From Thermoplasmata archaeon (lineage in GTDB: Archaea; Thermoplasmatota; Thermoplasmata; RBG-16-68-12; SOIM01), in contig JAGLME010000014.1 in assembly GCA_023140195.1 (NCBI GenBank), positions 17,656 to 81,655 of the forward strand: a stretch of DNA of 64,000 bases. Reading direction: 5' to 3'. Under the pieces are notes generated by a model that worked only from the letters and a program-made list of their open reading frames with translations, did not search any database and was not told where the DNA came from. Within the stretch, counting starts at the first letter, position 1; each line of letters begins with the position of its first letter. A program made the translations under genes and the position numbers. This document shows, one piece after another, positions 14,899-54,637 of this stretch.

Positions 14899-16890
14899 CT
14901 AGATCCTCTTCTTGAAGAACTCCATGGCCAGCACGGTCTCGTTGTCCATCTCTCCGTCCTCGTCCGTGTCCTCGCCTTCGTAATGGTAGACTATCACGTG
15001 GACTATGTTGGGCTCTCCATCATCATCGGGATCGACCGCTTCGTACAACAGGGCCGTGACCTTTGACTTCTCCTTCACTCCGTTGCTGTTCTCATCCCAG
15101 CTCTCCGCATGCACCGCAAAGAGCCTCTCCGCTTCATGGGTCCCATCTTCGTCCAGGTCGATGTACTGGAAGCCCAAGACAACCAGCAGCTCGTGCTCGG
15201 CGTTCCCATCATCGTTGTCATCCTGGAGCTCGTATGCGATCACTATGACCCCTGCGTATTCAGGCGTTCCGTTCGAGTTCATGTCAAGCATCTCGGCTGC
15301 CATTATGGCGGCGAAAGCGCTCTCGTTGTTGCCATTGCTGTTGGTGTCGTTCACCTGAGCCGTTCCCATGAGCGCCCTCTGGAACTCCGGGGCGCCATCC
15401 TCGTTTATGTCCAGACGCTGATAGGCGAGGAACTCCAGCTTGTCCTTCTCGGTGATGCCGTCCTCGATCTCGTCGGTCCTCTCGAATCTGATTGCCAGGA
15501 CACCAGTGTATTCAGGGACACCGTTGCTTGTGAGGTCTATGCCCTCGTATGCTCCGATCTCCGCGGACATCTTCTCCTGGAAACCGTTGGAGTTCTCGTC
15601 AAGCACTTCCAGGCTCAGGGAGAAGGCCTTCTCGACCTCTGGGTTCCCGTCCACGTCAAGGTCCAGCTTCTCGTATGCCCATGCCTTTGCCGTCATCGTC
15701 TCATTGTTCCCGTCGTCGTTGTCATCAACGGCGCTAAACTCGATCACCGCTGCGCCCTCATATTCGAGTGTCCCGTCGTCATGGATGTCATATGATCGAT
15801 AGCCAGCTATCCTTGCGTAGGTGTATTCTGGGAGCTCGTTCTCGTTCTCGTCCATCATCTCAAGTTCAATTGTCAAAGCCCTCTGGAACTCGTAGTTGCC
15901 GCTTTCATTGGCATCAACGTGCTCATAACAGCCGGCCTTGCCGATGATCCAGCTGGGCACCCCGTCGTCATCGAAGTCCTCTATCGTTGCCCGAAGCGTG
16001 CAGACTCCCTCGTATTCCTGGTATCCATTGCTCGTCGGGTCAAGTGTCAGATAGGCTCCAGCGAAGACCTCGGCCTTGTTGAACGTACCGTCCGAATCAA
16101 CGTCCCAAGCCTGGATCTCCTTCACCAGAACAAGCCTGATCTCCGGGTTTCCGTCGTCGTTCTCGTCGACCTCGCAGATGCCCATGATCGTCACGTTGAT
16201 GTACTCGGGATTACCGTCACCATCCGCGTCCTCGAAGTAAATGCTCCTTGTCCAGACGCACAGGGGGTCCTCGTCTTCGTCGTTCATGACCTTGGTGAGA
16301 AGGTCCGTGTCATATTGTTCGTCCATCTCCCGTGTCTCTTCAGTGCCCTCTAGAAGCATGCCAGCAAGGTCTCCCAGATCTCCGTCCTCTCCCTGCTCCA
16401 TGTCAAGTCCTTTCTGGTCCAGGATCTCTGAGATCTCGCCCAGGTTGTCCTTGTCCTTGAACTCCGCCGGGTCAAAAGGTTCTACCGGATAATCGGGATA
16501 TTCCTGTCGTGCCACATCCCATGGGTTACCGACGCTGTCCTTCGTCGTGGGGACGGTGGGCTCTTCCGCTTCTTCGGCTTCCTCAATACTCTTCTCGATC
16601 TCTGATTCATGTGTAATACCGGATTCCTTTCCTTCCGCGAACGTCACTGCTTCAATCTCAGCGGAATCGTCCATCTCGGCGCTCCTCGTGCCTTCGAACT
16701 TGGCTGAGGGATCCTCCTGATTGAAGCCCGTGACCTTCTGGTAATCGCTGTTATCCTCAAAGCTCGTCATTCCATAGTTCCCAGAGAGGATCACAGATAA
16801 TCCAATCGCTCCCAAAATCATGCACACACTAGCCAAAATCACTGGCAGTTTGCTGCTCTTTTCCGGAATTGGTGTTCCGTACATTTCCAA
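14899..16890 (-). CDS. N-terminally anchored, extremely acidic repeat protein with about 21 DxDxDG-type loops
   Basis: TM helix LPVILASVCMILGAIGLSVILSG. Acidic linker, then repeats every ~22 aa with consensus D-x-[DN]-x-[DN]-G-x-x-E followed by an alternating hydrophobic strand. Likely ATG at 16884. Confidence 0.85.
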   Translation of the reverse strand: MEMYGTPIPEKSSKLPVILASVCMILGAIGLSVILSGNYGMTSFEDNSDYQKVTGFNQEDPSAKFEGTRSAEMDDSAEIEAVTFAEGKESGITHESEIEKSIEEAEEAEEPTVPTTKDSVGNPWDVARQEYPDYPVEPFDPAEFKDKDNLGEISEILDQKGLDMEQGEDGDLGDLAGMLLEGTEETREMDEQYDTDLLTKVMNDEDEDPLCVWTRSIYFEDADGDGNPEYINVTIMGICEVDENDDGNPEIRLVLVKEIQAWDVDSDGTFNKAEVFAGAYLTLDPTSNGYQEYEGVCTLRATIEDFDDDGVPSWIIGKAGCYEHVDANESGNYEFQRALTIELEMMDENENELPEYTYARIAGYRSYDIHDDGTLEYEGAAVIEFSAVDDNDDGNNETMTAKAWAYEKLDLDVDGNPEVEKAFSLSLEVLDENSNGFQEKMSAEIGAYEGIDLTSNGVPEYTGVLAIRFERTDEIEDGITEKDKLEFLAYQRLDINEDGAPEFQRALMGTAQVNDTNSNGNNESAFAAIMAAEMLDMNSNGTPEYAGVIVIAYELQDDNDDGNAEHELLVVLGFQYIDLDEDGTHEAERLFAVHAESWDENSNGVKEKSKVTALLYEAVDPDDDGEPNIVHVIVYHYEGEDTDEDGEMDNETVLAMEFFKKRI

Positions 16891-17052: not shown

Positions 17053-17943
17053 GTGGTCATGGCCGTCAAGAAGAAGATCGTGATGTTAGGGGATAGCGCT
17101 GTTGGCAAGACTAGCTTGATCAGACGCTTTGTGTTCGACAAGTTCGATGATGCCTATATATCGACAATAGGCAGCAAGGTCACCAAGAAGGAGATGGTGA
17201 TTCCCAAGGATGGCAAGGAGACCGACCTGAGGCTCATGATATGGGACGTCCTGGGGAGAGAGGGCTACACCGCAACACACTCCAGGACCTTTGCGGGCGT
17301 TCACGGTGCGATACTCGTTTGCGATATGACCCGGAGGGAGACGCTGAAGACCCTTGAACGGTATTGGATACCACTGCTCTTCGATGTCGTGGAGCACGTT
17401 CCGCTGATCTTTGCCTGCAACAAGAACGATCTGTCCGCTGATTCCGCTTTTGAGCAGGACGACCTCATTTCAATCGCATCAAGGTACAATTCGGGGTTCA
17501 AGAAAGAGCTTCCAGCCAATCTCACAACTTGTTTTTCGACCAGTGCCAAGACCGGGGAGAATGTAGAGAGCGCCTTCGAAAGCCTGGGGCATATGGTACT
17601 TGCCAAGGGGATACCTGATGACCCGATAAAGGACCTCTATGAGAGCTTGGTGGCAATGGGTAAGCACAGGCAGACGGACACCGGTACTCCTGTGGGAGCT
17701 CTTGATGCCATCATAGTCGATTTCTGTGACGATTTCAAGGATGATCGGGTGGCCATGTCTCTTCTTCGTCAGGAGATTGTCAGAGCCGGCATAGACATCA
17801 GAAGTCCGTCGAAGGAAGGTCTTCTGAAGGTTGCCGAGTACCTGGCTGAAGCTGGGGCTGAGTTCCAGGACGAGAAGACTGTTCTGGCAAACAGGGACAA
17901 GTGGATGAATCTGGCAAGGAATGTGAAAGACCAGTCGGGCTAG
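17053..17943 (+). CDS. Ras/Rab-like small GTPase with ~120-aa C-terminal helical extension
   Basis: G1 GDSAVGKT, switch I YISTIGSKV, G3 WDVLGRE, G4 CNKNDL, G5 SAKTGENV. No C-terminal Cys. GTG 17053 or ATG 17059. Confidence 0.85.
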   Translation: MVMAVKKKIVMLGDSAVGKTSLIRRFVFDKFDDAYISTIGSKVTKKEMVIPKDGKETDLRLMIWDVLGREGYTATHSRTFAGVHGAILVCDMTRRETLKTLERYWIPLLFDVVEHVPLIFACNKNDLSADSAFEQDDLISIASRYNSGFKKELPANLTTCFSTSAKTGENVESAFESLGHMVLAKGIPDDPIKDLYESLVAMGKHRQTDTGTPVGALDAIIVDFCDDFKDDRVAMSLLRQEIVRAGIDIRSPSKEGLLKVAEYLAEAGAEFQDEKTVLANRDKWMNLARNVKDQSG

Positions 17944-18007: not shown

Positions 18008-20974
18008 ATGCTGGACATCCATTTTGAGCCAGAGATGGTTGGACGTGAAGAAGATCTCGAAGAGCTTCAGGCCTACGTGGAGATGGCATCTGACGGTTTT
18101 GGAAGTACGGTCCTACTCTCCGGAGAAGCTGGCATCGGAAAGACTAGGCTGATTGAGGAAGTTAAGGATTACGCTCAGTCAAAGGGCTTCCAAGTCCTTT
18201 CCGGATATAGTCTGTATGAATCTCTGACACCGTACATGCCCTTCATGGATGTCCTGAGGTCAGGCGGCCTGGACAATCTCTTCGCAGAGCAGTCCCCAAT
18301 GATCGAGGGCGTGTATCTGGTGACCAAGACCGGTCTTCTGATCCAGGAGATCATTAGAGAGGAGACCGAGCTTGACCCTGATCTTTTCGCATCCATGCTG
18401 ACCACCGTTGGTGACTTTGTCAGGGATACTCTCTCTCAGCTCAGGGGCGAGGAGACATTGGACTCGCTCAACAAACTTGGTTATGGTGACTACACAATCC
18501 TCATCGAGAGCGGCGAGAGCACATATCTAGCTGCGATCATCACTGGGGAAGAGAACGAGTTCCTCATAAACGACATGAGGGACAGTCTGATCATTGTTGA
18601 CAGAAGATATGGCCAAGTGTTAGACAGATGGGATGGGGACGAAGAGAAGGTGAAGGGAATTGGAGGCATCTTGAGTCCTCTGATTTCTTCAGGGAAGTAC
18701 GATGGCGTGTATCATGGCCGAGATGACCCTAGGTCACGGCGGAACCTTCTTTTTGAGAATGTATCTCTGGGCCTGCAAAGGCAAGCACAGATGAGGCCTA
18801 CCCTGTTGTGTCTGGAGGATCTCCAGTGGGCAGACCCATCTTCTTTGGCTTTGATGCATTACGTCGCCAGGAACACAAGGAAGCATAAGCTTCTGATTTT
18901 GGGCACATATCGTCCAGAGGACATCTTGGTCAAAGAAGGAGAATATCATCCCCTTGTCGATACGATGCAGTTGATGGGCAGGGAGGAGTTGTTCAAGAAG
19001 TTGGACCTTGGACGATTGCCAGAAGAGAGCATGACCGAATTCCTGTCCTCCATGTTGGGCAAGGTGGGATTAGGCGAGGAGTTCCAGCTCAGGATTTACG
19101 AAGAGACCGAAGGGAATCCGCTTTACATAATAGAGCTCACGAAATTGCTGATCGATGAGGGAATTCTGGAGAAGTTTGATGAAATCTGGGTGCTTCGCAA
19201 GGGTTGGGAAGAGGTAAACATACCTTCGAAAATCTGTGATGTGATTGTGAGGAGGCTTAACAGAGTTGAGACGGGGGATCGCAGGGTGTTGGACTATGCT
19301 TCTGTTGTGGGTGATGTCTTTGCATCAGATACCCTGTCAAAAGCTCTGAAATTGGAGAAGGTGCATCTCCTGGAGCGTCTCAGGGTACTCGAGAAGTCCC
19401 ACGGGCTTGTACACTCACAGGACGGTGCATTCAAGTTTGACCATGCGAAGGTGAGAGAAGTCCTCTATGGCGAGATTCCACATGAGCTAAGAATGGAGTA
19501 TCATGCAATAGTAGCCGACTCGATCGAGATGGTGAATAGTGCAAATCTGGACGAAGTGATTGGGGATCTAGCATTCCATTACTATCACTGCAAGAACAAG
19601 GAGAAGGCCACGACCTATCTGGTCAGGGCCGCTAGGAAAGCGATGGAAGAATACTCGAACGACGAAGCGATTAGATTCTTCACCGAAGCACAAGGCGTTG
19701 AAGATGACACGGACAAGAGGAAGGACATCCTGGAGGAACTTGGTTCGGTCTACGAGCTAATCGGGGACCTCAACGGGGCCTTGAAGACGTACAATGATGC
19801 ACTTGAACTGGCCAGGGACCCTAGAGCAAGAGCCGCGATCCTTACAGGGATTGGTGGCACACTTGAACGTCAGGGTCAGTATGACAGTGCAATCGGCACC
19901 TACATCGAAGCACTTGATTTGGTGAGGGGTGAAGGATGCAGGGAAGAAGCATATGCGATCGCGGGAATAGGAATTGTGCATTGGAGCCTCGGAGAGTATG
20001 ACAAGGCCCTGGAGTACTATACCAACTCTCTTGAGATAATGAGGGCCATAGGTGATAAACGGGGAATCGCCGACAGCCTCAATAATTTGGGCAACCTCCA
20101 TGTTCAGAGGGGAGACTATCGACAAGCTCTAGAGAACTATCAGGAGAATATGGAAATCAGGGAGAACACTGGTGATCTAAGGGGTGCCGCGCATGCTCTC
20201 AGCAACATCGGTGCGATTCACCTACACAAAAGTGAATTCGACGACGCCCTTGAGAAGTTCGAAGAGACCCTCCGAATCCTCGACAGGATCGGAGATCAGC
20301 TGGGCATCGCATATTCCCTGAACAACATAGGCGTCATACACGAAACCAGAAGCGAATACGAAGAGGCACTGGAGAACTACCGGAAGAGCCTGGAGTTAGT
20401 GGAGAAGATTGGCGATCAACAGGTTGTCGCATCCACTCTTCATAACATCGGCCTAATATGCAAGTACACCGGGAAGTACGACGAGGCCCTTGAACAGTAC
20501 AAGAAGAGCCTGGAGATATGTAAGAAGATAGGCCTTCAGGTGGGCTTGGCTTTCAACTATTGCGGCATCGCTGAGGTTCACTTCATGAAGAATGAACTGC
20601 AAAAGGCAATGGACTTTTGCAGTCGCGGATTAGAACAGTCCGAGGAAATTGGCGTGAAGGAGTACATCTCTGATTCGAAGAGGATTTTGGGGATGATTTT
20701 CCGAGAGACGAGCAGGTGGGAAGAGGCCGCAGAGAACTTCAGGGAAAGTGTCGATATATGCAAGGAGATAGGAAGGGAGAAGGAGCTCGGGAAGTCATAC
20801 TACGAATTCGGGTTGATGTGGGCACGGAAAGGAGACACCCAGAATGCCCGAGCAAATCTGGACAATGCAATTGAGATATTTCAGAAGCTGAAGCTCGGCA
20901 GGGAACTCCAGAGTGCAAGGGAAGCCCTAAGTGACCTAACCGAGTCTGAACGAACTTCCGCCGAATCTCTATGA
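18008..20974 (+). CDS. STAND/AAA_16-type P-loop NTPase with inserted alpha/beta domain and about 10 TPR units
   Basis: Walker A GEAGIGKT (aa 39-46) and Walker B region LLCLEDLQWAD (aa 266-276), with a ~120-aa insert between them. The C-terminal half is made of 40-residue TPR_12-like units (GDxxxALxxYxxxLEI). Confidence 0.85.
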   Translation: MLDIHFEPEMVGREEDLEELQAYVEMASDGFGSTVLLSGEAGIGKTRLIEEVKDYAQSKGFQVLSGYSLYESLTPYMPFMDVLRSGGLDNLFAEQSPMIEGVYLVTKTGLLIQEIIREETELDPDLFASMLTTVGDFVRDTLSQLRGEETLDSLNKLGYGDYTILIESGESTYLAAIITGEENEFLINDMRDSLIIVDRRYGQVLDRWDGDEEKVKGIGGILSPLISSGKYDGVYHGRDDPRSRRNLLFENVSLGLQRQAQMRPTLLCLEDLQWADPSSLALMHYVARNTRKHKLLILGTYRPEDILVKEGEYHPLVDTMQLMGREELFKKLDLGRLPEESMTEFLSSMLGKVGLGEEFQLRIYEETEGNPLYIIELTKLLIDEGILEKFDEIWVLRKGWEEVNIPSKICDVIVRRLNRVETGDRRVLDYASVVGDVFASDTLSKALKLEKVHLLERLRVLEKSHGLVHSQDGAFKFDHAKVREVLYGEIPHELRMEYHAIVADSIEMVNSANLDEVIGDLAFHYYHCKNKEKATTYLVRAARKAMEEYSNDEAIRFFTEAQGVEDDTDKRKDILEELGSVYELIGDLNGALKTYNDALELARDPRARAAILTGIGGTLERQGQYDSAIGTYIEALDLVRGEGCREEAYAIAGIGIVHWSLGEYDKALEYYTNSLEIMRAIGDKRGIADSLNNLGNLHVQRGDYRQALENYQENMEIRENTGDLRGAAHALSNIGAIHLHKSEFDDALEKFEETLRILDRIGDQLGIAYSLNNIGVIHETRSEYEEALENYRKSLELVEKIGDQQVVASTLHNIGLICKYTGKYDEALEQYKKSLEICKKIGLQVGLAFNYCGIAEVHFMKNELQKAMDFCSRGLEQSEEIGVKEYISDSKRILGMIFRETSRWEEAAENFRESVDICKEIGREKELGKSYYEFGLMWARKGDTQNARANLDNAIEIFQKLKLGRELQSAREALSDLTESERTSAESL

Positions 20975-21372: not shown

Positions 21373-23559
21373 TCACAGCTCAGAGTATTTCTTCCATTCC
21401 TCCAAGATCCTCTCTTTGGTCTTGAGGCTCAACTTCTGAAGTTCAAGGGCGCTGTCATGCGCACCGACTTCGTACAACACATACCCCAGCTGATTAAGGA
21501 CCCTGGCAATCTCCTCTTTATCTGCCTCTTGTCTCGCGATCTTCAGATCTTTCATCAAGTATCCGACAGCCTTCTCAAATCTCCCCTTCCTGGCCATTAT
21601 GGATCCAATTCCCCCCAGTATCCTCGCCGCCTCCATTGTTTCGCTATCCTTGCCGATGGTCGACAGTGCCTTCAGGTAAGCTTTCAGTCCGTCCTCGAAT
21701 TCTCCGATGCTTCTGTGGATCGAACCGATCTTACGCCCGCACCTCGCCGCCCCTTCGCCGTCCCCCACCTCTTCGTGAAAAACCCTGCCTTCCTCATACT
21801 TGGCAATGGCATCGTCCAAGTGCCCCTTCGTCCAGAAAATGTCTCCCTCCCTCTCTGTGAGGATTGCCTTCTCTTCTGCGTTCAGGATCTTAGGGTCGAA
21901 CTCCATGAGAAGCGCCAGCATCTCATCGTCAAACCCGCTCTTGATGAGTCTCTCGCCGATATCTCTAAGATATCTGGCTGCCCAGGAATGGTTGCCGGAG
22001 ACAAGAAGATGATGAATTCCCTCTATCTGGAGTATCTCGTCCTCCTCCCTAAGCAAACCCTCTGACGCCCAGAAGTGATATCTATCCTTCTCTTGGGGAG
22101 TCAACATCGACAGGAAGGGCTTGCGTATCATCTCATGTACCTTGACCCGCCCGTCTTCAAGCGTTATAATCAGCATCCTCTTCTTCAGGGCGAGATACGT
22201 TTCGATGCCCATCGTTTCGTCAAAGAACAATCTCGAGGTCTGAACCGGGTTCTCATACACCGAAGCGATCTTCATCATCTGCTTCTCCTTCGGCTCCAGT
22301 TCCGAGTAGATCTCCTCCTCGATGAACTGGTCGACGTACCTCAATCTTGGCTCTGGACCTATCGTGGGAACTGAGGAGATTAGCTCCAAGAACAAGGGGT
22401 GACCCTGGGTGGCAGTGTATATCTCATCAAACATGCCAAATTCATCCAAGTCATTCCCGAGTAGGTCCTTGCTGCTCATCTTGTCCAATCCCAGCAGCTG
22501 AATCTCCTCCACCGTGTGATTCACTTCCACTTCCTTGCGATCGTAGAAAGGTGCGGTCTCCCTCGTCATCACAACTATCGCAAGCTCACTCTTCTCTTTG
22601 AAGACGGGCAATAGCTGACGGAAGAAATCCACTGTTTCATCGTTCGCTTTCTGGAAATCGTCAAAGAACAACACGGCTCTATCTGCGTCGATATCGTCTC
22701 TGAGCGCTGACCTCACATCCTTCATGTCCAGGTCTTTTTCTGCTCTCAGATACTTGCTCAGATTTCTGGATCCCATTGCCTCTAGGAACCGTGAGAGCTC
22801 ATTCAGGAGACCCCAAAGGCTATGCCATTTACGAAACTCGTACCAGAAAACGCTTCTCTTCTTCTTGACCTCGGAGCAGACCTTTGATGCGAGTGCCGTT
22901 TTGCCGATTCCTGCAATCCCCTGGATGACCACTATTCTCCCCCTCTCGATTCCGGTCAGGATAGCCTTCTTCTCAACTTCCCTGCCGCAGAACCTCTCCG
23001 GCCTCGGGCTTGTCCTAGAGAAATCCACAGGGCGGGATTCCGGCCTTCGGGCTCTTCTCCTCAGAAGACTAGGATCCAGTACATCGCTCGTTTCCAGTTC
23101 GTCTACCAGCTGGACCAAGGACACATTTCCTGCCGACTCAACAATGTCTGATATCTTTCCTTCTGAGATTCTTCCATCCAAATCGAAGTATCGAATCTCC
23201 TCGGAGAGCAAGGAGTTCTTGAGGCTGGTTGCGCTCGAGAGACCTTCCATCTCCAGTGAGTACACCTTCCTCTTCCTCTTCCCCCCGCTTATTCGGGAGG
23301 ATCGCTCTGCAACCAGTTCCTCCTCCAGCAGTGGTTTCATGTACTGTCTGAAGTGGGACGGCAGGATGCCAATACCTTCCGAAATGCCGGTCTGAGTTAT
23401 GTCCTCAGGCGCCTCATGATCGTCAGCCGAGGAACGGTTCTCCAAGAGATACAGCTGTATTTTCTCCTTTGTCGTAAGGATGCGCCTCAGAACCCACTCC
23501 TCCAGTACAAACCTCATGCTGAGAGCCATAAATATCTTTTTGGGAGCAAATGGCTCCAT
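21373..23559 (-). CDS. wHTH - P-loop NTPase (ORC/STAND-like) - TPR protein
   Basis: N-terminal winged-helix-like segment, Walker A GIAGIGKT, Walker B LFFDDFQ, C-terminal TPR units (GHLDDAIAKYEEG..., IGEFEDGLKAYLKAL...). Confidence 0.85.
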   Translation of the reverse strand: MEPFAPKKIFMALSMRFVLEEWVLRRILTTKEKIQLYLLENRSSADDHEAPEDITQTGISEGIGILPSHFRQYMKPLLEEELVAERSSRISGGKRKRKVYSLEMEGLSSATSLKNSLLSEEIRYFDLDGRISEGKISDIVESAGNVSLVQLVDELETSDVLDPSLLRRRARRPESRPVDFSRTSPRPERFCGREVEKKAILTGIERGRIVVIQGIAGIGKTALASKVCSEVKKKRSVFWYEFRKWHSLWGLLNELSRFLEAMGSRNLSKYLRAEKDLDMKDVRSALRDDIDADRAVLFFDDFQKANDETVDFFRQLLPVFKEKSELAIVVMTRETAPFYDRKEVEVNHTVEEIQLLGLDKMSSKDLLGNDLDEFGMFDEIYTATQGHPLFLELISSVPTIGPEPRLRYVDQFIEEEIYSELEPKEKQMMKIASVYENPVQTSRLFFDETMGIETYLALKKRMLIITLEDGRVKVHEMIRKPFLSMLTPQEKDRYHFWASEGLLREEDEILQIEGIHHLLVSGNHSWAARYLRDIGERLIKSGFDDEMLALLMEFDPKILNAEEKAILTEREGDIFWTKGHLDDAIAKYEEGRVFHEEVGDGEGAARCGRKIGSIHRSIGEFEDGLKAYLKALSTIGKDSETMEAARILGGIGSIMARKGRFEKAVGYLMKDLKIARQEADKEEIARVLNQLGYVLYEVGAHDSALELQKLSLKTKERILEEWKKYSEL

Positions 23560-24081: not shown

Positions 24082-24252
24082 TAAACTCCATTATACGTCA
24101 AATTGTTGCGAATTCCGGCTAAATCACGCTAACCTTAAGTACGTCCTCGGAAATCATTGATGGATGCCTTAACCTCAGAGGTACGCCAAGAACGGTATGA
24201 GGAGGGTCGTGTCTTGAGTTTGAGGTTCTCAATACATAATGGGAGAAATCGG

Positions 24253-27200
24253 ATGATGAAGAAAACTTTGAGTTCTGTGAGCGAGCCTGAAAGAATTTGG
24301 AAATACCGCGGATTTGCCCTCATTGTATTTGCCGTTCTTGTGACATCTGCAATGGGAGTTCTCGTGAGCTCCTTCGCCGCCTTTGCGGGTCAAACAGAGA
24401 CCGCCAACGGTCTTCCCGAGATGGAAGCTCTGGGTGATGATTGGCCGGAGCCCACTGGAGCTCTTGGAAGCGGATGGATAGCTGACCAGTTGGCCGAAGG
24501 TTTATCCAATGATGCTGCGTCCCCGTCAATAACGACCGGACCTGGTGGCACGTTGCATGCCGCCTACGAAAGTTTCTCGGTCGCCGCTGGGTACCAGATC
24601 GCTTACACTAATTCGACCGACGGTGGAACCACTTGGAATCCTATCGGTTTGGCTGGATATAATGTCGAAGACGACTTGAATCCCGACATCGCGGTATCTC
24701 CCGCCGATGGTAGGATCTTCGTTGCCTTTGAACGCCACGTCTTATTACAGGATGTTGACTTGCACATTGCCTATTCTGACGACGGAGTCACCTGGACACA
24801 GGTGGTGATCGATCCGGGTGTGACCGAGTATATTAATCCCAGTATAGTTGTCGAACACAATCAGGGGGCCACGTATAACGTGTATGTGGCCATTGAGGAG
24901 TTTTTCGGTGATCCCGACAACGTAAACATCCATCTCTTTCGGAGCACCGACCAAGGAGTATCCTACACAGAGCAATTATACCTCGGTTCCCCCCCGGACC
25001 CCAGCGTGTACACCGACCCTGACCTAGCGTATCAGCGTGGTCCTGACTTGATCGATCGTTTGTACATGGTGTACGCCTATGGTAATGACGCTGTAGACAC
25101 GCAGAATATCGGTCTACTGTGGTCGGAAGATAGGGCGGGAACATTTTCGGCGACCACTGTGCGTCTAGACACCGCTCTAGTGTACTATCCGACGATAGCC
25201 GCTTCCCGCGATGGGGACACAATCTTGACGGCCTGGCAGGTGAACACAGTTGGGGATTATCTGATTCGTTATGCCTATCAACTGGATACGACCAATCCTG
25301 GGGCAGTCTGGAACTTCGCCAGCAGAGACAGTCTTGGCGCCAATGACTATGCGCCCAAGTTGTCAGTTGATGGGGAGGGGACAACGTCGGACGCGATCGC
25401 AGGTAACTACCACCTCATCTGGACGGTCGGCACTGGTTTCAATTACTTGAACTACACCTCCAGATCGACGGCCTTGGATATAGACCCCTGGACGGCAATC
25501 GAGACCATTGATGACCTGGTCAGCGGACCGTCTGTGTTTCTACCGGTGAAAGGTCTTACGACTCAGAACAGGGATGGAACTTGGTATCCAGCCGCCGTCT
25601 GGACGGATTCTCGATCTGGCGGTTCTGACGACATCTACTATGTGACACCCGGCATGCGCTCGACGGTGGATGCAGTTCCTGGAACTCGTGTACTCGACGT
25701 TGACGGAGTCCTCTTTGCCGATCCTCGGACATTCGACTGGCCTGCAGGAACCCTGCACGATATCTTCGCTCCTTCTCCACAGGCTGGAGCTCCTGGTCAG
25801 CAGTTCGCCTGGAACAGCTGGAGCGATGCTGGGGCCCAGTTGCACACCGTTACCGCGACGACAACGGACGCGACCTACACGGCCCAGTTCTCTGTCCAAT
25901 ATGAAGTCGTCCTGGACACTTCCCCAACCGGATTGAAAGCCTGGGTTGACGGGATGGAAGTTTCCACACCGCTGGCGTACTGGTGGGACGATGGAAGCCT
26001 CCATGATCTTGACGTGACTTCGCCTCAACCTGGCCCTATCCCGCTACAGAGGTACGTCTGGAACAGCTGGAGCGATGCCGGTCCTCAGTCCCATCAGATA
26101 TCAGTAACAATGGCTGATACGATTACAGCCAACTTCGGCTTGGAGGACGAGATGACGATAGAAGCCTGGGACCAGACGAACTTGGTACCACTGCCGGATG
26201 TTCCCGTCTACATAGACGGACCACAGGTAGGGATCACTCCACATGTAGCTTGGCTCAATAACGGACAGATGTATGATATCGGCGTACAGGATCCATACAA
26301 TGACGGTGTCAACGACTACAACTTCGTCGACTGGGATTTCGGTCTCACTGCGAATCCGGCTCCAGTTACCGGATGGGGATCTATCATTGCCAATTATGAC
26401 GAGGCACCCCCGACCGCATTCTCCCTCGAGGTTGCACCATTGACGAGAACAATAAACCCTGGAGACATGACAACAACGTTCACCATTACCCTGAAGTCCC
26501 TGAGCGGATATGCGGGTGATGTCCTGTTGAGTGCCACTGCCCTTCCGGACACACTTTTGCTGCCAGCGGGTCCAGCGAGTGCGGCATTCTCGCCCAATCC
26601 AGCAACCGTTCCACTTGGAGGACAAGTAACATCTACATTGACCATCGACAACACTGCAACAGTTCCCGACGACATCTACACAATAACGGTCGTTGGCGTG
26701 GACACGGTATCAGCAGCAATATCTGACAGCAACGACACCGAGCTGATAGTAGTAACACCGACCTTTGACGTCACAGCCACGCCTCTGACGCTAACTAGAG
26801 GACCAGGTCAGGATGCAATCTACACTGTGACCGTGACATCTGTCAACGGCTATGAGGGGGACGTAGGCCTCAACGCAACGGCTCTCCCGGGTGGCCTACT
26901 ACCTCCAGGTCCAGGGATAGCGACCTTTGTGCCGAGTGTGGTCTCAGTTCCTCTCGCAGGAAGTGCACAATCAACTCTGACCATCAGCAATACTGGAGCT
27001 GTTTCTGATGCCACATACACAATCACCATCATCGGCGATGATCCGTCGGGCACAGACGCTTTCAATGTCGATCTGATCGTCACAACGGTTCCGTTCTTCA
27101 CAATGGATGCCACACCTGCGACACAACAGGTCTCACCCGGAGGAGTAGCCGCATACACGGTAACAATAACGTCTTACAATGCATACGTCGGAACAGTTGA

Positions 27201-28458: not shown

Positions 28459-28617
28459 TTAACATCGTTATGTTTCGGGTAGCCCAGCATTTTGGCTCGA
28501 ACACACTAAGTTTAAGTATCCTTATGGAATTCATCTGACAGATTCCCCGATTGCGAAGGATGCAACTCTGAAGTGGATGGCTATCCTCGTTGGGGGGTTC
28601 TGGATATGGTAGGAGGA

Positions 28618-48327: not shown

Positions 48328-48903
48328 GTGACTATCGTGAGCGAACTCGAAAAGGTAAAGGCGAAGATTTGTCTCGTTGGAGAGGCTGCAGTGGGTAAGA
48401 CCTCACTCATAAGGCGGTACGTTCTCGACGATTTTGACGACAAGTACATTACGACTCTTGGTGCGAAGGTGTCCAAGAAGAAGATGGAGTTCGATGTGCC
48501 CAACAACGGTATGCGCGTCGGAATGGACATGACCATCTGGGACATTATGGGAGAGAAGGGGTTCAGGGACCTGGTGAAAGAAGCTTTCTTCGTTGGGACC
48601 CGAGGGGTACTGGCGGTGTGCGACATAACTCGGTATGATACGCTGAAAGAACTGGATGATTGGGTCCAGTCCGTTTTCAAGGTGGTCGGGAACATCCCGG
48701 TGATCTTCGCTGTCAACAAGGTCGATCTCAAGGACGAGGTACTTCTGATGTACGGTGACACCGAGCTCGACCAGGCATCCAGAGCGTTCGATGCACACTA
48801 TCTGTACACCAGTGCAAAGACGGGTGAGAACGTCGAGGAAGCTTTCAGGTTGATGGGCGAGAGGATTGTTGAATCCAGTATATCTCCTCGATTGGCGAAG
48901 TGA
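48328..48903 (+). CDS. Ras/Rab-like small GTPase
   Basis: G1 GEAAVGKT, switch I YITTLGAKV, G3 WDIMGEKG, G4 VNKVDL, G5 SAKTGENV. 191 aa, no CaaX. Confidence 0.85.
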   Translation: MTIVSELEKVKAKICLVGEAAVGKTSLIRRYVLDDFDDKYITTLGAKVSKKKMEFDVPNNGMRVGMDMTIWDIMGEKGFRDLVKEAFFVGTRGVLAVCDITRYDTLKELDDWVQSVFKVVGNIPVIFAVNKVDLKDEVLLMYGDTELDQASRAFDAHYLYTSAKTGENVEEAFRLMGERIVESSISPRLAK

Positions 48904-48964: not shown

Positions 48965-49570
48965 ATGGGTCCTGACTTTTCTGAAGGTGGAGAATCCGTG
49001 TCGACATCCGGAGCGCAGACCAAGAAGGTGAAGAGCAAGATTTGCCTCATCGGAGAGAAGGCTGTGGGCAAGACCAGTCTGATAAGACAGTACGTTACTA
49101 ACATGTTCGACGACAGATACATCACCACCGTCGGTACGAAGGTCTCCAAGAAGGAGATGTTGATAAAGAAGCCTGAGCACGGTTTCGACGTTCAGATCGA
49201 CATGACCATATGGGACATCATGGGGGAAAAAGGATTCAGGGAGCTACTGAAGGATGCCTATTTCTACGGCGCCAATGGAATACTCGGGGTGGCGGACATC
49301 ACCCGGGAGAAGACGTTGGACGACCTGGACGATTGGATCGACTCCACACTGAAGACCGCTGGAAAGATACCGCTTCTGATCGCGATCAACAAGACCGATC
49401 TGGAAGAGGCAGTGCAGGTGGGCGACAAAGAGGTTCTTCAGCTGGCAAAGGCCTTCAATTGCCCGTTCATCTACACGAGCGCCAAGGAGGGCAACAACGT
49501 GGAGGATGCGTTCTACCAGTTGGGTGAGATGACCTTGGACGCCCAGTTGGGTTTTGTGAAGCCTGAGTGA
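48965..49570 (+). CDS. Ras/Rab-like small GTPase
   Basis: G1 GEKAVGKT, switch I YITTVGTKV, G3 WDIMGEKG, G4 INKTDL, G5 SAKEGNNV. 201 aa, no CaaX. Confidence 0.85.
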   Translation: MGPDFSEGGESVSTSGAQTKKVKSKICLIGEKAVGKTSLIRQYVTNMFDDRYITTVGTKVSKKEMLIKKPEHGFDVQIDMTIWDIMGEKGFRELLKDAYFYGANGILGVADITREKTLDDLDDWIDSTLKTAGKIPLLIAINKTDLEEAVQVGDKEVLQLAKAFNCPFIYTSAKEGNNVEDAFYQLGEMTLDAQLGFVKPE

Positions 49571-49777: not shown

Positions 49778-52700
49778 ATGAGAGATCCCAACCTCACACG
49801 GAAGGCAATCCATCTCCTCGTTCTAATCGTTGTAGTGCAGAGCATAATGGCGGGATTCTCAAACAGGCCTGTCTCCGGCCAAGAGCCAGTGGTCTCTGAT
49901 GTTGGTAGCTGGAGGAGAACCGCCACTTGGGGATTAGACGATCCTGGGAACTACACATTGAATAATGTCAACTTCCAAAGTGGAAGTGCGAATCTCACCC
50001 TCAACGACTTCTCATGGTCCGAAAGCAATCAGAGTGATTTCATGGACGGTTCTTGGGACGACAATGTCACGATTACGCCAGATGGGAACTTGACGCTGAA
50101 ACATGATGATACAAACCTCATCCAGAATGGGGATTTCAGCGCTGATTCGGATTGGACGTATTCCAATGGAACGGGGGGCAATGTCATCGCTGAACGCGAT
50201 GGAGTTCTGAACAACTCACATCTCCACCACTTTGAGCCAGTGCAACTCCCACTTTTCTTTGACAGAATGGACAGCGAGGCTAACTGGTTTTGGATTGGAA
50301 ACTCCTCTGGTGGCTCGAAATCCCTCAACACTTCCCTGCCCCATGAAGGGGGTGCATCCATACGGGTCAACTGGACACCCAGTAGCCCCGACAAGTGGGC
50401 TGGTATGATTCGAACTGCACCTACACAATGGGATTGGTCATCCTACAACAGGTTGAGTATGTGGCTAGCGACAGGCTATGACGGGGGCAATCTCGAGAGT
50501 CATCTTACGTTGATGGATGTGAATACAGTCAGTTGGGACTCTCCCAGGGAACTGGTCTCGGGAGATTGGAGTGAGCGTGTCTTTGATTTGGATGGGTTCA
50601 CTGGCAACATCTCGCGGGTCAAGGAGATTTCCATCAAGTTCACGGGCATCGGTGGTTCTGTGAACATGAGCGTTTCCATCGACGACATCAAACTATATCG
50701 AGTGAAGATCTTCGAGGAAACCGGTTACGTAAATCAAACCTTTGCAAAAGCCAATGTGACTGAAAACATCCCGGGAAATGTCATGTTGAGCTTTGATGTT
50801 CTAATCGAGGAACGTACGAACGTAGTAGATTCCAACCTCACTCTTCTGGTTATGAATTCGACAAGTAATTTCACGTGGGAAAAGAATCTGACCACTCCGC
50901 CCTATTCGAGTCATATCATTGCAGATCTGAGTTGGCTCATGATTAAGGACGGTAGCTACAATCTTAGTCTTCAACTTCATTTGTCGGTAAACACCCGTAT
51001 GGTAACGAGTTATTCCGTCAGGTTTGACAACATCACAATTATCGCCCATAATCGCAAGAACGGAACGTATCTGTCTGAATCCTATGACACGCAGTCCCAG
51101 TCTCTATGGAAGAACATAGCTTGGACCGAGGGCCAACCAGATCCAGAGACGAACATCAGCATTATGACAAGAACTGGGAACTCCAGCAACACATCCGATG
51201 GGTCATGGTCTGGCTGGGACACACATCTTGCCAACTCAATCATGTCACCTCCAAACAGGTACATCCAATACAGGGTCGGCCTCAACACCACAAACGCCAG
51301 CAAGGGTCCGATGCTCACCAACATCAGCTTGAGTTATGACCAATACCCTCGAATCGGCACCGTTGAAACAGACAACTTCACTGTACCAGATATTCACTCC
51401 TGGGAGATCTTTGAGGTAAACGAGACCATTCTCCCCGAGACCGAGATAGACTACTACTTCTCCTCTGACCTTGGCAGTAATTGGGTCCCCATGGGCGACG
51501 GGGCCAACCTCTCATTCGTCACAAACAACACCATCAAACTGAAAGCCGAGCTCAAGACATCCAACACCACCTTCACTCCACAGTTGCTTGAGTTTAGACT
51601 CACCTACGAGTACACGGGGCCGCTCGACCACATCCACATGTCTGATTCGCTCTTGTCCACGACTGCCAACACCACCCTCTTCCTGTCGGCCTGGGGCCAC
51701 GATATACTTCATCGTAACGTCACATTCACCCAGAAATGGGAAACGACCGATCCGCTGGGCAATGTAATCCAATTCGGGAGCTACACTGCCGGCAAGGTCG
51801 GGAGCTGGAGGGTCTACTGCAACAACACCGCTGACACCATCTCCAACTGGACCACGGTCGATGTGTCAGCAGGTTCTATATTCCGAATTGGGATCGATCC
51901 GTGGGACCCTGGAACGCTTACCGCGGATGACGAACTTCGGTTCAATGCCACTGGCTACGATGCGATGGACAACCCCTTTACTATCACTCCCAACTGGTCC
52001 GTATCAGGCGGTATTGGCACTGTAGATTCTGGCCCGAACGCCACATCCCTCTTCCAGGCCACTCAAACCGGAACGGGTCGGGTCAGCATAACTGACGGAA
52101 TCCATACGAACCAAACCAACCTCTTCTCCGTGATTGCTGGACAACTGGCCTCGATTGCCGTAAACCCCTCTTCCAAGGACCTCCTGCCCGACCAGTCAAC
52201 CGTCTTCACGGCTCAGGGATATGACGGGGATGGGAACCCACTGACACTCACTTCCACATCTTGGGAAACGAACGCAGGCACCATAACCGGGAGCACACCT
52301 ACCATTGCCGACTTCACCGCCCAATCCACGGAGCTGTTGGGGGGATACGTCAGGGCAACCCAGGATTCCATTTCAGGTGAGGCCGTTGTCAACGTGAATG
52401 ACAATGACGATCCACCGCGGATCCAAGGCGTTGTGCCAGACCAGCTGAAGACCGAGGACCATGGTACGTGGACGCTGGACCTTTCTACCTTCGCCAGCGA
52501 TCAGGAGGATGACGATTCCAAACTCAAGTGGAGGGTCACTGGGGATGATTCATCCCTATACACGATTGCAGGAGAGGACCAACCCGGGAACCATGTTCTC
52601 ACATTCTCCACAAAGCAGGACGCGAACGGCAACAACGGGGTCACGCTCTGGTTGATTGATACTCGTGGCCAAACCTCCCAGCAGTCGCTCTGGGTCAACA

Positions 52701-54637
52701 TCACCCCTGTGAATGACAGACCATCGATATTTGCCCCGGAAAAGGTCTTTGTCAGGTTCGATGTGCCAAGTCCTGAGGACTACTCCTCATATGTCGATGA
52801 TGTGGACAACCCCATTGGAGATCTAACGATATCCACAGACGATCCTGGTCACACGTCAGTTCAAGGCCTGGAGGTCACTTACGAGTACCCAGAGAGCATG
52901 GTGGGGGAATCAGTCCTTGTCATCCTCACGGTTTCAGACGGGCTTGACCAGGCTCAGGACGTGGTGGAGGTCATCGTGAGCAGCAACTACCCTCCCCGCA
53001 CTCTCACCCCAATCCCGGATGTTGTCATAGACGAGGACGAGATCCTCAACGATCATTTCGACCTGAACGACCACTTCGAAGATCCGGACGACAGTGAACT
53101 CACCTTCGGGTCACTCTCTCAGAGAGTGGGAATAGACATCGACTCCAACGGTTTGGTCTCCCTCCACCCGGAGGCGAACTGGTTCGGAGACGAATTGGTG
53201 ATGTTCTCCGCTACGGACAGTTCTGGCGCGGTTGCGTACGATCCGGTGTCCGTCAGCGTGCTCCCCATCAACGATCCACCCAGCATTGGAGGCTTGCCAG
53301 ACATAACGATTCACTATGGCATCACATTCGACTTCGATGTCTCACCCTACATTTCTGACGTTGACAATCTGATCAGTGAGCTGACGATCTTCTGCTCGGA
53401 TCCTGGCTGCTCGACCATTCAGGGCACCACCATCTCGTTCACGTATCTGACTGAGACGACGGTCCTGGTGACCGTTACCGTCAGCGATGGGGAGTATCAG
53501 GATTCTGATAACATGGAGGTCCGAGTGACAGACAACAATCCGCCCGTGTCCAAAGGTCTTCCAGATGTGTTCTTCAATGAAGATGAGGCTCTTCAGTCTG
53601 CATTTGACCTTGACCATTATTTCAGCGATTTGGAGGGCGACGCTCTTACCTTCTCGGTCAACCAGACCCAGTCCTACGTCCAGGTCTTAATTGGGATCGA
53701 CAACGTGGTATCATTCTCTTCATCCGAGAACTGGAGCGGCCAACAGATCATTGTATTCAGGGCCGTTGACGAGGACGCTGCGGTCGTTGAGGACTCGATC
53801 ATTGCCACAGTGATCCCTGTGAACGATGCTCCCGTCATCTCCCCGATTCCAAGGCAGAGTGGCGAGAAGAACAAGGCCTGGCTGCTCGATCTGACTTCAT
53901 ACATCTTTGATTCCGACAACAAGACCGACGACCTTTGGATAGAGTCTGACTTTGAATATGTGGTAGTGGCCGGACACTTCCTGATTTTCAATTGCGAAGA
54001 GAGCTTCGATTCGAGGGATGCCAGGGCAACCGTGAACGATGGTCTGCTTCAGAGCTCCAGCCCATTCGAGGTCAGCGTCACCTCTCCTGTCAACCCTCAG
54101 GTCGAGATGTACATATGGCCGACGTCGATAGGTATCATCCTGCTGGGATTGGTCGGATTGCTTTACTGGAGAGCATCCAGGGGTTTTGTGCTGGAGGATC
54201 TCTTCGTTATCGGAAAGGACGGAAAACTCCGGGTCCACAAGAGCACGCGGACCAGACCAGACAGAGATGAGGATCTTTTCTCCGGAATGTTGACCGTCAT
54301 TCGAGATTTCACCGCAGACACCTTCAGGGAAGAAAAGGGCACCCTGAAGTCTTTCGAGCTGGAAGAGGATAAGAAGGTCATCATGGAGTCTGCAGAGGGC
54401 TTCTATGTAGCATTGATTTTCTCTGGAAAGGAACCCCGGTGGGCGCCGAAGTCGCTTGAAGCCTTCTCCCAGGACATGGAGACCATGTACGGTCCTTTGA
54501 TCACGTCTTGGTCAGGAGCCATGGATGAGTTGGGAGACCTTCCTAATATGGCCGATTTCTTCATACATAAGAGAAGATACAGCGTCGGGGATTGGCAACC
54601 AACTGAAGATGAACTATCGTTCGAAGAAGCGGACTAA
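49778..54637 (+). CDS. giant sequon-rich surface protein with Ig/cadherin-like repeats, one TM helix and a cytoplasmic alpha/beta domain
   Basis: Signal anchor LLVLIVVVQSIMAGFS. About three dozen N-x-S/T sequons in the first ~700 aa. Repeats ending in VNDRP / INDPP / VNDAP. TM MYIWPTSIGIILLGLVGLLYW (54107-54169). C-terminal ~150 aa resembles the insert of 18008-20974. Confidence 0.9.
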   Translation: MRDPNLTRKAIHLLVLIVVVQSIMAGFSNRPVSGQEPVVSDVGSWRRTATWGLDDPGNYTLNNVNFQSGSANLTLNDFSWSESNQSDFMDGSWDDNVTITPDGNLTLKHDDTNLIQNGDFSADSDWTYSNGTGGNVIAERDGVLNNSHLHHFEPVQLPLFFDRMDSEANWFWIGNSSGGSKSLNTSLPHEGGASIRVNWTPSSPDKWAGMIRTAPTQWDWSSYNRLSMWLATGYDGGNLESHLTLMDVNTVSWDSPRELVSGDWSERVFDLDGFTGNISRVKEISIKFTGIGGSVNMSVSIDDIKLYRVKIFEETGYVNQTFAKANVTENIPGNVMLSFDVLIEERTNVVDSNLTLLVMNSTSNFTWEKNLTTPPYSSHIIADLSWLMIKDGSYNLSLQLHLSVNTRMVTSYSVRFDNITIIAHNRKNGTYLSESYDTQSQSLWKNIAWTEGQPDPETNISIMTRTGNSSNTSDGSWSGWDTHLANSIMSPPNRYIQYRVGLNTTNASKGPMLTNISLSYDQYPRIGTVETDNFTVPDIHSWEIFEVNETILPETEIDYYFSSDLGSNWVPMGDGANLSFVTNNTIKLKAELKTSNTTFTPQLLEFRLTYEYTGPLDHIHMSDSLLSTTANTTLFLSAWGHDILHRNVTFTQKWETTDPLGNVIQFGSYTAGKVGSWRVYCNNTADTISNWTTVDVSAGSIFRIGIDPWDPGTLTADDELRFNATGYDAMDNPFTITPNWSVSGGIGTVDSGPNATSLFQATQTGTGRVSITDGIHTNQTNLFSVIAGQLASIAVNPSSKDLLPDQSTVFTAQGYDGDGNPLTLTSTSWETNAGTITGSTPTIADFTAQSTELLGGYVRATQDSISGEAVVNVNDNDDPPRIQGVVPDQLKTEDHGTWTLDLSTFASDQEDDDSKLKWRVTGDDSSLYTIAGEDQPGNHVLTFSTKQDANGNNGVTLWLIDTRGQTSQQSLWVNITPVNDRPSIFAPEKVFVRFDVPSPEDYSSYVDDVDNPIGDLTISTDDPGHTSVQGLEVTYEYPESMVGESVLVILTVSDGLDQAQDVVEVIVSSNYPPRTLTPIPDVVIDEDEILNDHFDLNDHFEDPDDSELTFGSLSQRVGIDIDSNGLVSLHPEANWFGDELVMFSATDSSGAVAYDPVSVSVLPINDPPSIGGLPDITIHYGITFDFDVSPYISDVDNLISELTIFCSDPGCSTIQGTTISFTYLTETTVLVTVTVSDGEYQDSDNMEVRVTDNNPPVSKGLPDVFFNEDEALQSAFDLDHYFSDLEGDALTFSVNQTQSYVQVLIGIDNVVSFSSSENWSGQQIIVFRAVDEDAAVVEDSIIATVIPVNDAPVISPIPRQSGEKNKAWLLDLTSYIFDSDNKTDDLWIESDFEYVVVAGHFLIFNCEESFDSRDARATVNDGLLQSSSPFEVSVTSPVNPQVEMYIWPTSIGIILLGLVGLLYWRASRGFVLEDLFVIGKDGKLRVHKSTRTRPDRDEDLFSGMLTVIRDFTADTFREEKGTLKSFELEEDKKVIMESAEGFYVALIFSGKEPRWAPKSLEAFSQDMETMYGPLITSWSGAMDELGDLPNMADFFIHKRRYSVGDWQPTEDELSFEEAD

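Follow-up and report, generated by a model that had tools for sequence, protein, structure and literature searches.

The window analysed here, a 64-kb stretch of DNA from a Thermoplasmata archaeon (GenBank assembly GCA_023140195.1, contig JAGLME010000014.1, positions 17,656 to 81,655 of the forward strand), encodes two large proteins that share a domain of about 130 residues, here called X. One host is a 988-aa STAND NTPase and the other a 1619-aa type-I surface protein, and each is encoded just downstream of Ras-family GTPase genes. Judged from its structural model, X is a divergent member of the Roadblock/longin superfamily with the longin order of secondary structure. It forms a large Thermoplasmatota family that lies outside every Pfam and NCBIfam model, and its genes are linked to those of small GTPases whether the search starts from X or from the GTPase. 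X probably represents the shared component of a Thermoplasmatota signalling system built on small GTPases, serving as a GTPase-binding platform both at the membrane and within a STAND protein.

The two copies of X in the window are homologous. Copy 1 (18287..18688, + strand) covers residues ~94-227 of the STAND NTPase, within its P-loop domain, and is supported by BLASTP against the other copy, an X-only hidden Markov model (HMM), an AlphaFold2 model, and restoration of the AAA_16 domain by deletion. Copy 2 (54179..54550, + strand) covers residues 1468-1591 of the surface protein in a juxtamembrane cytoplasmic position, as supported by BLASTP, tblastn, and the X HMM. The first-pass annotation, made from the sequence alone, had proposed that the insert in the STAND protein is homologous to the surface-protein tail. 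BLASTP agrees, matching nt 18296-18652 to nt 54185-54634 at E 1e-13 with 29% identity over 114 aa, and both segments fall into one HMMER family. With either segment as a tblastn query against the six frames of the whole window, the sole match is the other copy (E 1e-10 to 2e-10); the next-best matches have E of at least 0.2, and no third copy is found in these frames. Chance or compositional similarity between the copies is ruled out by the BLASTP, tblastn, and HMMER family searches.

In the STAND protein, X interrupts the nucleotide-binding core. The host gene (18008..20974, + strand) encodes an AAA_16 domain (Pfam E 1.4e-21) and a TPR array (TPR_12, E 4e-80; TPR_MalT, E 1.5e-23). Walker A reads GEAGIGKT (18122..18145, + strand, residues 39-46) and the Walker B region reads LLCLEDLQWAD (18803..18835, + strand, residues 266-276), both taken directly from the sequence; X occupies the helical region between strand 2 (FQVLSGYS) and Walker B. 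Deletion of residues 94-226 converts a split AAA_16 match of two stretches into one contiguous match (profile positions 2-166 of 167, 82 bits), and the Walker B region then matches the C-terminal part of the profile. Because the match becomes contiguous once X is deleted, X is a true insertion into the P-loop domain. An insert between Walker A and Walker B had been called at residues ~97-215; the motifs and coordinates quoted for it are all present and the location stands, and the extent was refined to residues ~94-227 because the C-terminal helix pair belongs to X.

In the surface protein (49778..54637, + strand; Pfam Big_9, E 2.3e-6), X instead forms a cytoplasmic tail domain. The order of parts is an N-terminal signal or anchor, a Big_9/cadherin-like ectodomain, a transmembrane helix, X, and an acidic tail. 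A hydropathy scan places hydrophobic segments near residues 6 and 1445 (positions 11 and 1449 of the open reading frame). The transmembrane helix before X (54110..54169, + strand, residues ~1445-1464 by the same scan) has the sequence IWPTSIGIILLGLVGLLYW and is followed by RASRG. X begins about four residues past this helix, and a 28-aa acidic tail comes after it. The closest relatives of this copy are other copies carried behind a transmembrane helix.

The predicted fold of X is of the longin type. AlphaFold2 modelling from a 58-sequence alignment gives a mean pLDDT of 88.2 and a pTM of 0.81; a model from five sequences is weak (pLDDT 65). The elements of the deeper model follow the order β1-β2-α1-β3-β4-β5-α2-α3, with strands at residues 5-13, 18-23, 62-66, 69-75, and 79-86 and helices at 31-52, 91-113, and 119-132. 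This is the order of the longin alpha-beta-alpha sandwich. The canonical Roadblock order, α1-β1-β2-α2-β3-β4-β5, differs, in that the X model starts with β1 and carries its extra helices at the C-terminus. X is thus longin-like in topology and not canonical Roadblock, as the N-terminal helix that defines the latter is missing, and for that reason it is not filed under PF03259.

Structural comparison places X within the same superfamily. A Foldseek comparison had been suggested as a check of the proposed Roadblock/longin resemblance, and all 50 PDB matches listed are longin-type or Roadblock proteins (49 at E ≤ 1e-3 and one at 1.0e-3; best E 5e-6; TM-scores 0.4-0.65). The longin-type matches comprise the sigma subunits and mu N-terminal domains of AP-1/2/3/4 and zeta-COP, aligned over the full length (E 5e-6 to 4e-4, TM-scores 0.45-0.65; TMq 0.45-0.60). 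The Roadblock matches comprise MglB, dynein LC7, the C-terminal domain of RagC/Gtr2, Asgard Roadblock proteins, and MglC. The shallow five-sequence model retrieves the same families together with LAMTOR. Among sequence profiles, Robl_LC7 (PF03259) is the only recurrent Pfam match, found for five of the 58 X members with a best E of 8.5e-6; one relative, P0089, scores above its gathering threshold (25.3 vs 23 bits). Longin family profiles yield no significant match across the 58 members (Fuz_longin_1 in two at E of at least 0.08, Intu_longin_1 in one at E 0.16). The best-conserved element of X is helix α1, with the pattern D-x-D-[IL]-F-x-x-M-L-T-x-V-x-x-F-V-x-D-[ST]. This helix probably corresponds to the central helix, which provides the functional face in Roadblock and longin proteins.

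X makes up a large family in Thermoplasmatota. An exhaustive HMMER search of 1.84 billion representative proteins, clustered at 50% identity, recovers 4329 proteins at E ≤ 1e-3 and 1992 at E ≤ 1e-10 with a profile that included some AAA_16 columns. An X-only HMM confirms X in all 150 family proteins listed and in three found earlier. No Pfam or NCBIfam model recognises the window copies. Of the 79 genome loci retrieved with X, 78 come from metagenome-assembled genomes labelled Thermoplasmata, Methanomassiliicoccales, DHVE2, or older euryarchaeal names, and the sole exception is a 1.2-kb contig binned as Planctomycetota. These loci were scanned with a 10-sequence subset of the 58-sequence alignment; since a single peptide pattern was used to retrieve them, the taxonomic range is a lower bound. 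One of them, from a Methanomassiliicoccales genome (L001), carries a copy 99% identical to the window insert.

The family displays four architectures. In the first, STAND NTPases of ~1000 aa carry X 51-58 aa after Walker A (n=72 non-redundant). The second consists of membrane proteins, from 200 to over 1800 aa long, whose C-terminal end is a transmembrane helix and X, including DUF11, CARDB, and Big_9 surface proteins; X starts 1-12 residues past the helix in most cases. Polytopic membrane proteins with tandem X-X (P0073, P0074) make up the third, and the fourth comprises giants of ~2400 aa in which two or three CARDB-X modules are joined by a DUF5915 domain at the C-terminus. The giants (L027-L072, e.g. 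L028:5606-12934; P0050, P0005) come from soil Thermoplasmata genomes, and their modules read [CARDB-like sandwich]-X-[~380-aa helical]. Hydropathy scans detect hardly any hydrophobic segments in them, or none at all, and never one ahead of X; their synteny is conserved, and no GTPase gene neighbours them. Some STAND-X proteins (P0016, P0025, P0031, P0036, P0085) place the core behind a large N-terminal region with a transmembrane helix ~130-150 aa before Walker A, an arrangement of receptor-STAND fusions. STAND-X genes also often form tandem arrays of two or three same-strand paralogues (L008, L011, L014, L031, L074), with no GTPase gene in flanks of up to 10 kb.

The insertion into the STAND domain appears to be a single ancient event. 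The site is fixed at the stated distance from Walker A in all 72 proteins, and in a neighbour-joining tree of 139 X sequences one branch splits 77 of 79 STAND copies from 48 of 48 clearly non-STAND copies. A fixed site and a single separating branch fit one ancient insertion followed by radiation. The two window copies of X represent the two old subfamilies, not a recent duplication.

Each X host in the window has GTPase genes of its own. A 296-aa Ras-like GTPase (17053..17943, + strand; Pfam Ras E 4.8e-28, residues 8-182) is encoded 64 bp ahead of the STAND gene. Two short Ras-like GTPase genes in tandem precede the surface-protein gene: the first at 48328..48903 (+ strand, Pfam Ras E 1e-29) and the second at 48965..49570 (+ strand, Pfam Ras E 6.3e-35), 207 bp upstream of the host. 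The window holds exactly these three Ras-family genes, and the earlier observation that both hosts adjoin such genes is borne out, each host lying just downstream (E 5e-28 to 6e-35). The window's order of GTPase-GTPase-[ectodomain-transmembrane helix-X] recurs in L138 and L157. Since both hosts come with neighbouring GTPase genes of their own, what the conserved pairs share is X together with a GTPase, irrespective of the host protein.

Linkage extends beyond the window when X is the starting point. The 79 genome loci contain 13 Ras-like genes, all within 4.2 kb of an X gene and nine within 600 bp. Sequence no more than 1.5 kb from an X gene makes up only 28% of the flanks, and the clustering is significant (binomial p=0.002; p=0.008 with apparent orthologues collapsed). 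A GTPase gene lies immediately upstream in four of five genuine proteins with X behind a transmembrane tail helix. Among STAND-X loci, a Ras-like gene is adjacent in 7 of 38, in three gene orders. All-against-all clustering of neighbouring open reading frames, dominated by spurious high-GC frames and giant-protein synteny, reveals no further conserved partner.

The reverse test, based on 80 metagenome loci fetched with the GTPase alignment, gives the same association. X is present in 30 of the 80 loci, and in 16 of the 33 with at least 1 kb on both sides of the GTPase; in these 16 an X gene is found no more than 1.5 kb away. Within these 33, X accompanies 11 of 16 GTPases with a C-terminal extension vs 5 of 17 short ones. 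Of the 37 X genes, 27 are found less than 600 bp from the GTPase gene, 24 of them upstream and in the same orientation; the other ten are at distances of 0.7-4.1 kb, none farther (p=6e-5). Five of these ten belong to arrays in L096 and L105, where four and three genes for a transmembrane helix with X, respectively, are followed by a single GTPase gene. In nearly all complete open reading frames of the reverse-test loci, X is preceded, at a distance of 1-37 residues, by a transmembrane helix. Coupling of X genes to small-GTPase genes is thus seen in both directions, and is partial for the STAND subclass. The first-pass annotation had asked whether homologues are enriched next to small-GTPase genes, and they are, significantly so from X (p=0.002) and from the GTPase (p=6e-5). 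On all three matters by which it had proposed to judge its idea the outcome is favourable: the segments are similar, the fold is longin/Roadblock, and GTPase association holds from both sides.

A second recurrent neighbour of the same GTPase family is DUF835 ('iKaiC'), encoded directly downstream of the GTPase gene or between GTPase genes (E 8e-21, 3e-27). It is found in L084, L092, L117, L129, L130, L133, L139, L141, and L156, and at L019:6890-8761(-) and L020:8031-8969(-). X and DUF835 never occur together in the 80 metagenome loci (30 X only, 9 DUF835 only). DUF835 also appears in giant open reading frames beside giant X proteins (L073, L078, L079). A canonical Roadblock/LC7 gene (L020:5374-6156 (+), E 1.9e-11; also in L037) lies adjacent to V4R and CBS-domain genes, ~3.5 kb from a STAND-X gene and two GTPase genes. 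A classical Roadblock protein and X can therefore share one neighbourhood.

The partner GTPases are of the Ras/Rup type. They carry G1 (GxxxxGK[ST]), G3 (DxxG), and G4 (NKxD) motifs, match Pfam Ras (E 5e-28 to 6e-35) and TIGR00231 small_GTP, and the G3 aspartate together with these matches sets them apart from the MglA type. Eight of 12 X-adjacent GTPases share a conserved, apparently helical C-terminal extension of ~90-110 aa, which matches no Pfam family. It is found at window positions 17620-17943 (residues ~190-296) and in L016, L019, L020, L023, L060, and L077, with the consensus ~aLD.i...Fc...gd...m.....aGiDi, and the GTPases that bear it form the subfamily with the closest link to X. 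The possibility that this extension is a Roadblock domain, like that of Rag GTPases, was considered and set aside, given its apparently helical sequence and lack of a Pfam match. The three window GTPases lack the catalytic glutamine of G3 and have arginine or glutamate instead (WDVLGRE, WDIMGEK, WDIMGEK), whereas most X-adjacent relatives keep DxxGQ. Loss of the glutamine hints at weak intrinsic hydrolysis or at a residue contributed in trans.

The partnership of Roadblock and longin modules with small GTPases is ancient. In its basic form, X makes up the cytoplasmic end of membrane proteins whose ectodomains vary, 1-37 residues past a transmembrane helix, and a Ras-like (Rup-type, DxxG) GTPase is encoded directly downstream or, as in the window, directly upstream. 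X appears to have entered an AAA_16/TPR STAND NTPase once in evolution, between strand 2 and Walker B, and that form then radiated. Most probably, on the model of MglB-MglA, SRX-SR-beta, and Ragulator-Rag, X would act, likely as a dimer, as a platform that binds its cognate GTPase in a nucleotide-dependent manner. At the membrane, X would link the condition of the surface protein to the GTPase switch. Within the STAND protein, a GTPase bound beside the nucleotide pocket would gate ATP-dependent activation or oligomerisation, and the TPR array would bind targets. From fold and gene context we infer that X docks the GTPase physically, that it dimerises, and that it would act in one direction or another as a GTPase-activating protein, a guanine nucleotide exchange factor, or an effector.

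Several observations weigh against X as a GTPase-docking Roadblock/longin module. Sequence-profile support for Roadblock is weak: the window insert matches Robl_LC7 at E 0.095-0.16 with 12-13 bits (cutoff 23), and the surface-protein copy does not match this profile. Alignment of the X family by hhalign to one canonical Roadblock sequence, that from L020, gives a probability of 7.7%, in the correct register. A profile search of PDB sequences with X returns nothing meaningful (best MotA, E 0.3), nor does a single X sequence against PDB chains (a ribosomal protein, E 1). The near-invariant residues Gly16, Asp30, Gly87, Trp115, and Gly117 look mostly structural, and no obvious arginine finger or asparagine thumb stands out in the X alignment. 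In the available flanks of up to 10 kb, 31 of 38 STAND-X loci have no Ras-like gene, and about 40 loci of giant CARDB-X-X proteins of ~2400 aa that lack DUF835 never have one; the giant-protein loci are syntenic orthologues and so amount to roughly one observation. The earlier proposal of a Roadblock/longin-like module paired with GTPases holds for fold class and for gene association, with docking itself a probable function; the association is strong for the membrane-tail form, partial for the STAND form (7 of 38 loci), and absent from the giants.

These gaps leave room for other roles, each of which seems less probable than a GTPase platform. X might be a homotypic adaptor in the manner of Death or TIR domains in eukaryotic STAND pathways, with receptor X heterodimerising with STAND X as Roadblock domains do in LAMTOR2/3 or in the C-terminal domains of RagA/C. 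The STAND protein would then be recruited to the membrane and activated there, with the GTPase in an accessory regulatory role and not as the main ligand of X. As a rule, Roadblock and longin domains exist only as homo- or heterodimers, Roadblock domains pairing through the central helix and an edge strand, and the Foldseek matches include the LAMTOR and Rag C-terminal domain dimers. Receptors and cytoplasmic STAND proteins with X coexist in one genome, both in the window and in the metagenome-assembled genome SRP141376_co2_322 (STAND in L010, L015, and L020; transmembrane helix with X in L060). The many STAND-X genes without an adjacent GTPase and the tandem X-X of polytopic proteins (P0073, P0074) would also suit an adaptor. 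Yet in no locus examined are genes of the STAND and transmembrane classes adjacent, each pairing with its own GTPase gene, and one deep branch parts the two classes of X, at ~29% identity. Heterodimerisation of this kind is accordingly judged rather unlikely.

Less likely again is that X only dimerises or scaffolds and never contacts the GTPase, so that the GTPases act elsewhere and the linkage reflects co-regulation. The absence of a nearby GTPase from giant CARDB-X loci and most STAND-X loci would suit this explanation, as would the mostly structural character of the conserved positions and the alternative pairing of the same GTPase family with DUF835, never with both partners in one metagenome locus. 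It fits poorly with X-GTPase adjacency across four host architectures and three gene orders (upstream same strand, downstream convergent, upstream divergent). Moreover, X is the only feature common to the GTPase-adjacent hosts, and the structural relatives retrieved are, without exception, partners of small GTPases or dynein light chains belonging to that superfamily. A role as a small-molecule or lipid sensor of the PAS/profilin-like fold class, reading a cytoplasmic ligand by the membrane or the ATP site, is very improbable: longin and Roadblock domains do fall in a broad PAS-like fold class (Zhang et al. 2012, PMC3521125) and X is membrane-proximal, but no PAS, GAF, or profilin appears among the 50 Foldseek matches listed, and conserved pocket-type polar residues are not evident in X.

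X as a GTPase platform resembles several known systems, each with clear differences. Like MglB-MglA, it is an alpha/beta sandwich of the Roadblock superfamily encoded beside a small-GTPase gene, and MglB is among its Foldseek matches. MglB, however, stands alone as a soluble protein of ~130-160 aa and begins with a helix, whereas X lacks this N-terminal helix, has two C-terminal helices, and is always part of a larger protein, be it tethered by a transmembrane helix, inserted in a STAND domain, or repeated. The partner of MglB is of the MglA type and the partner here of the Ras/Rup type (DxxG). Longin domains (AP sigma and mu N-terminal, zeta-COP, SRX of SR-alpha, Mon1-Ccz1, DENN) share the β-β-α-β-β-β-α-α order of X, and the best global structural matches of X are sigma-adaptins (E 5e-6, TM-scores 0.56-0.65). 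Longin domains are regarded as Roadblock derivatives of eukaryotes (and Asgard archaea) (PMC3521125), whereas X comes from Thermoplasmatota. In SRX-SR-beta, a longin-like module holds a small GTPase at the membrane; the anchor is on the GTPase in that receptor and on the longin-like domain here.

The Ragulator (LAMTOR)-Rag system likewise uses membrane-anchored Roadblock dimers as a platform for small GTPases, and both LAMTOR and the Rag C-terminal domain are among the matches of X. Rag GTPases carry a Roadblock domain of their own, whereas the GTPases here carry a helical extension unlike Roadblock; Ragulator is anchored by lipid and X by the transmembrane helix of a surface protein. The actinobacterial conservon (CvnA membrane sensor kinase, CvnB Roadblock protein, CvnC, CvnD GTPase) also unites a membrane sensor with a Roadblock-type protein and a small GTPase in one operon (PMC4316618; PMC13343842). 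There the sensor and Roadblock protein are separate, the sensor is histidine-kinase-like, and the GTPase is of the MglA type; here the sensor and X form one polypeptide with no kinase. Apart from X, the STAND host resembles MalT/AfsR-like AAA_16 proteins in its Walker A, Walker B, TPR_MalT-like array, and full AAA_16 match. Unlike that comparison class, it has no N-terminal effector domain.

To our knowledge, prokaryotic Ras-like (Rup) GTPases have had no known partner so far. In a survey of prokaryotic Ras-superfamily GTPases, none of 121 Rup GTPases was coupled to MglB (Wuichet & Sogaard-Andersen, PMC4316618). Rab-like GTPases are on record from a Thermoplasmatales archaeon and from Aciduliprofundum, with no partners named (PMC4915359). 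The view taken of longin domains is that they arose in eukaryotes as circular permutants of Roadblock (PMC3521125), and longin/Roadblock-GTPase fusions have been described in Asgard archaea (PMC10933270). Operons that pair Roadblock with a GTPase are ancient. What is new here is the family and its architectures within this known Roadblock/longin-GTPase theme. We found no published description of the X family in either its membrane-tethered or its STAND-inserted form, in a literature search of incomplete coverage that leaves a prior description possible, and no account of a STAND nucleotide-binding domain with a globular insert between its Walker A and Walker B motifs.

X is thus a candidate partner of Rup GTPases that standard profiles miss, fused to membrane receptors and inserted in a STAND ATPase, and one 64-kb window offers concrete pairs in the form of three GTPases and two X hosts. 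It bears on small-GTPase evolution and archaeal signalling, and on the origin of the longin topology and of membrane-anchored GTPase platforms, which are discussed almost only for Asgard archaea and eukaryotes. A broader proposal, tentative and somewhat doubtful, joins these parts into a dedicated transmembrane signalling pathway of Thermoplasmatota, in which variable-ectodomain receptors, juxtamembrane X of longin topology, Ras/Rab-like GTPases, and STAND NTPases with X in the ATP-binding core might act together. Under that proposal, prokaryotic Rup-type GTPases would gain in X their first family of regulators or partners, the longin arrangement, held to be a eukaryotic/Asgard permutation of Roadblock, and its membrane pairing with Ras-like GTPases would occur outside the Asgard-eukaryote lineage, and a small GTPase would for the first time be seen to gate a STAND switch through a domain inserted in its P-loop fold.

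Among defence-system models in PADLOC, only generic TPR models match the STAND protein, giving it no assignment, and none matches X or the GTPases. Other genes of the window surround the GTPase/STAND pair. Divergent from it, across an intergenic region of 160 bp, lies a gene (14899-16890, - strand) for a 663-aa protein with an N-terminal transmembrane segment, no Pfam match, and many acidic D-x-[DN]-x-[DN]-G-x-x-E repeats that resemble calcium-binding loops. A second STAND NTPase gene (21373-23559, - strand; 728 aa, AAA_16/NB-ARC and TPR) is convergent with the STAND-X gene and has no X insert. Beyond it, two + strand genes (24157-28233 and 28573-32319) encode paralogous surface proteins of ~1300 aa with BNR/sialidase-like and CarboxypepD_reg/SdrD_B-like domains.

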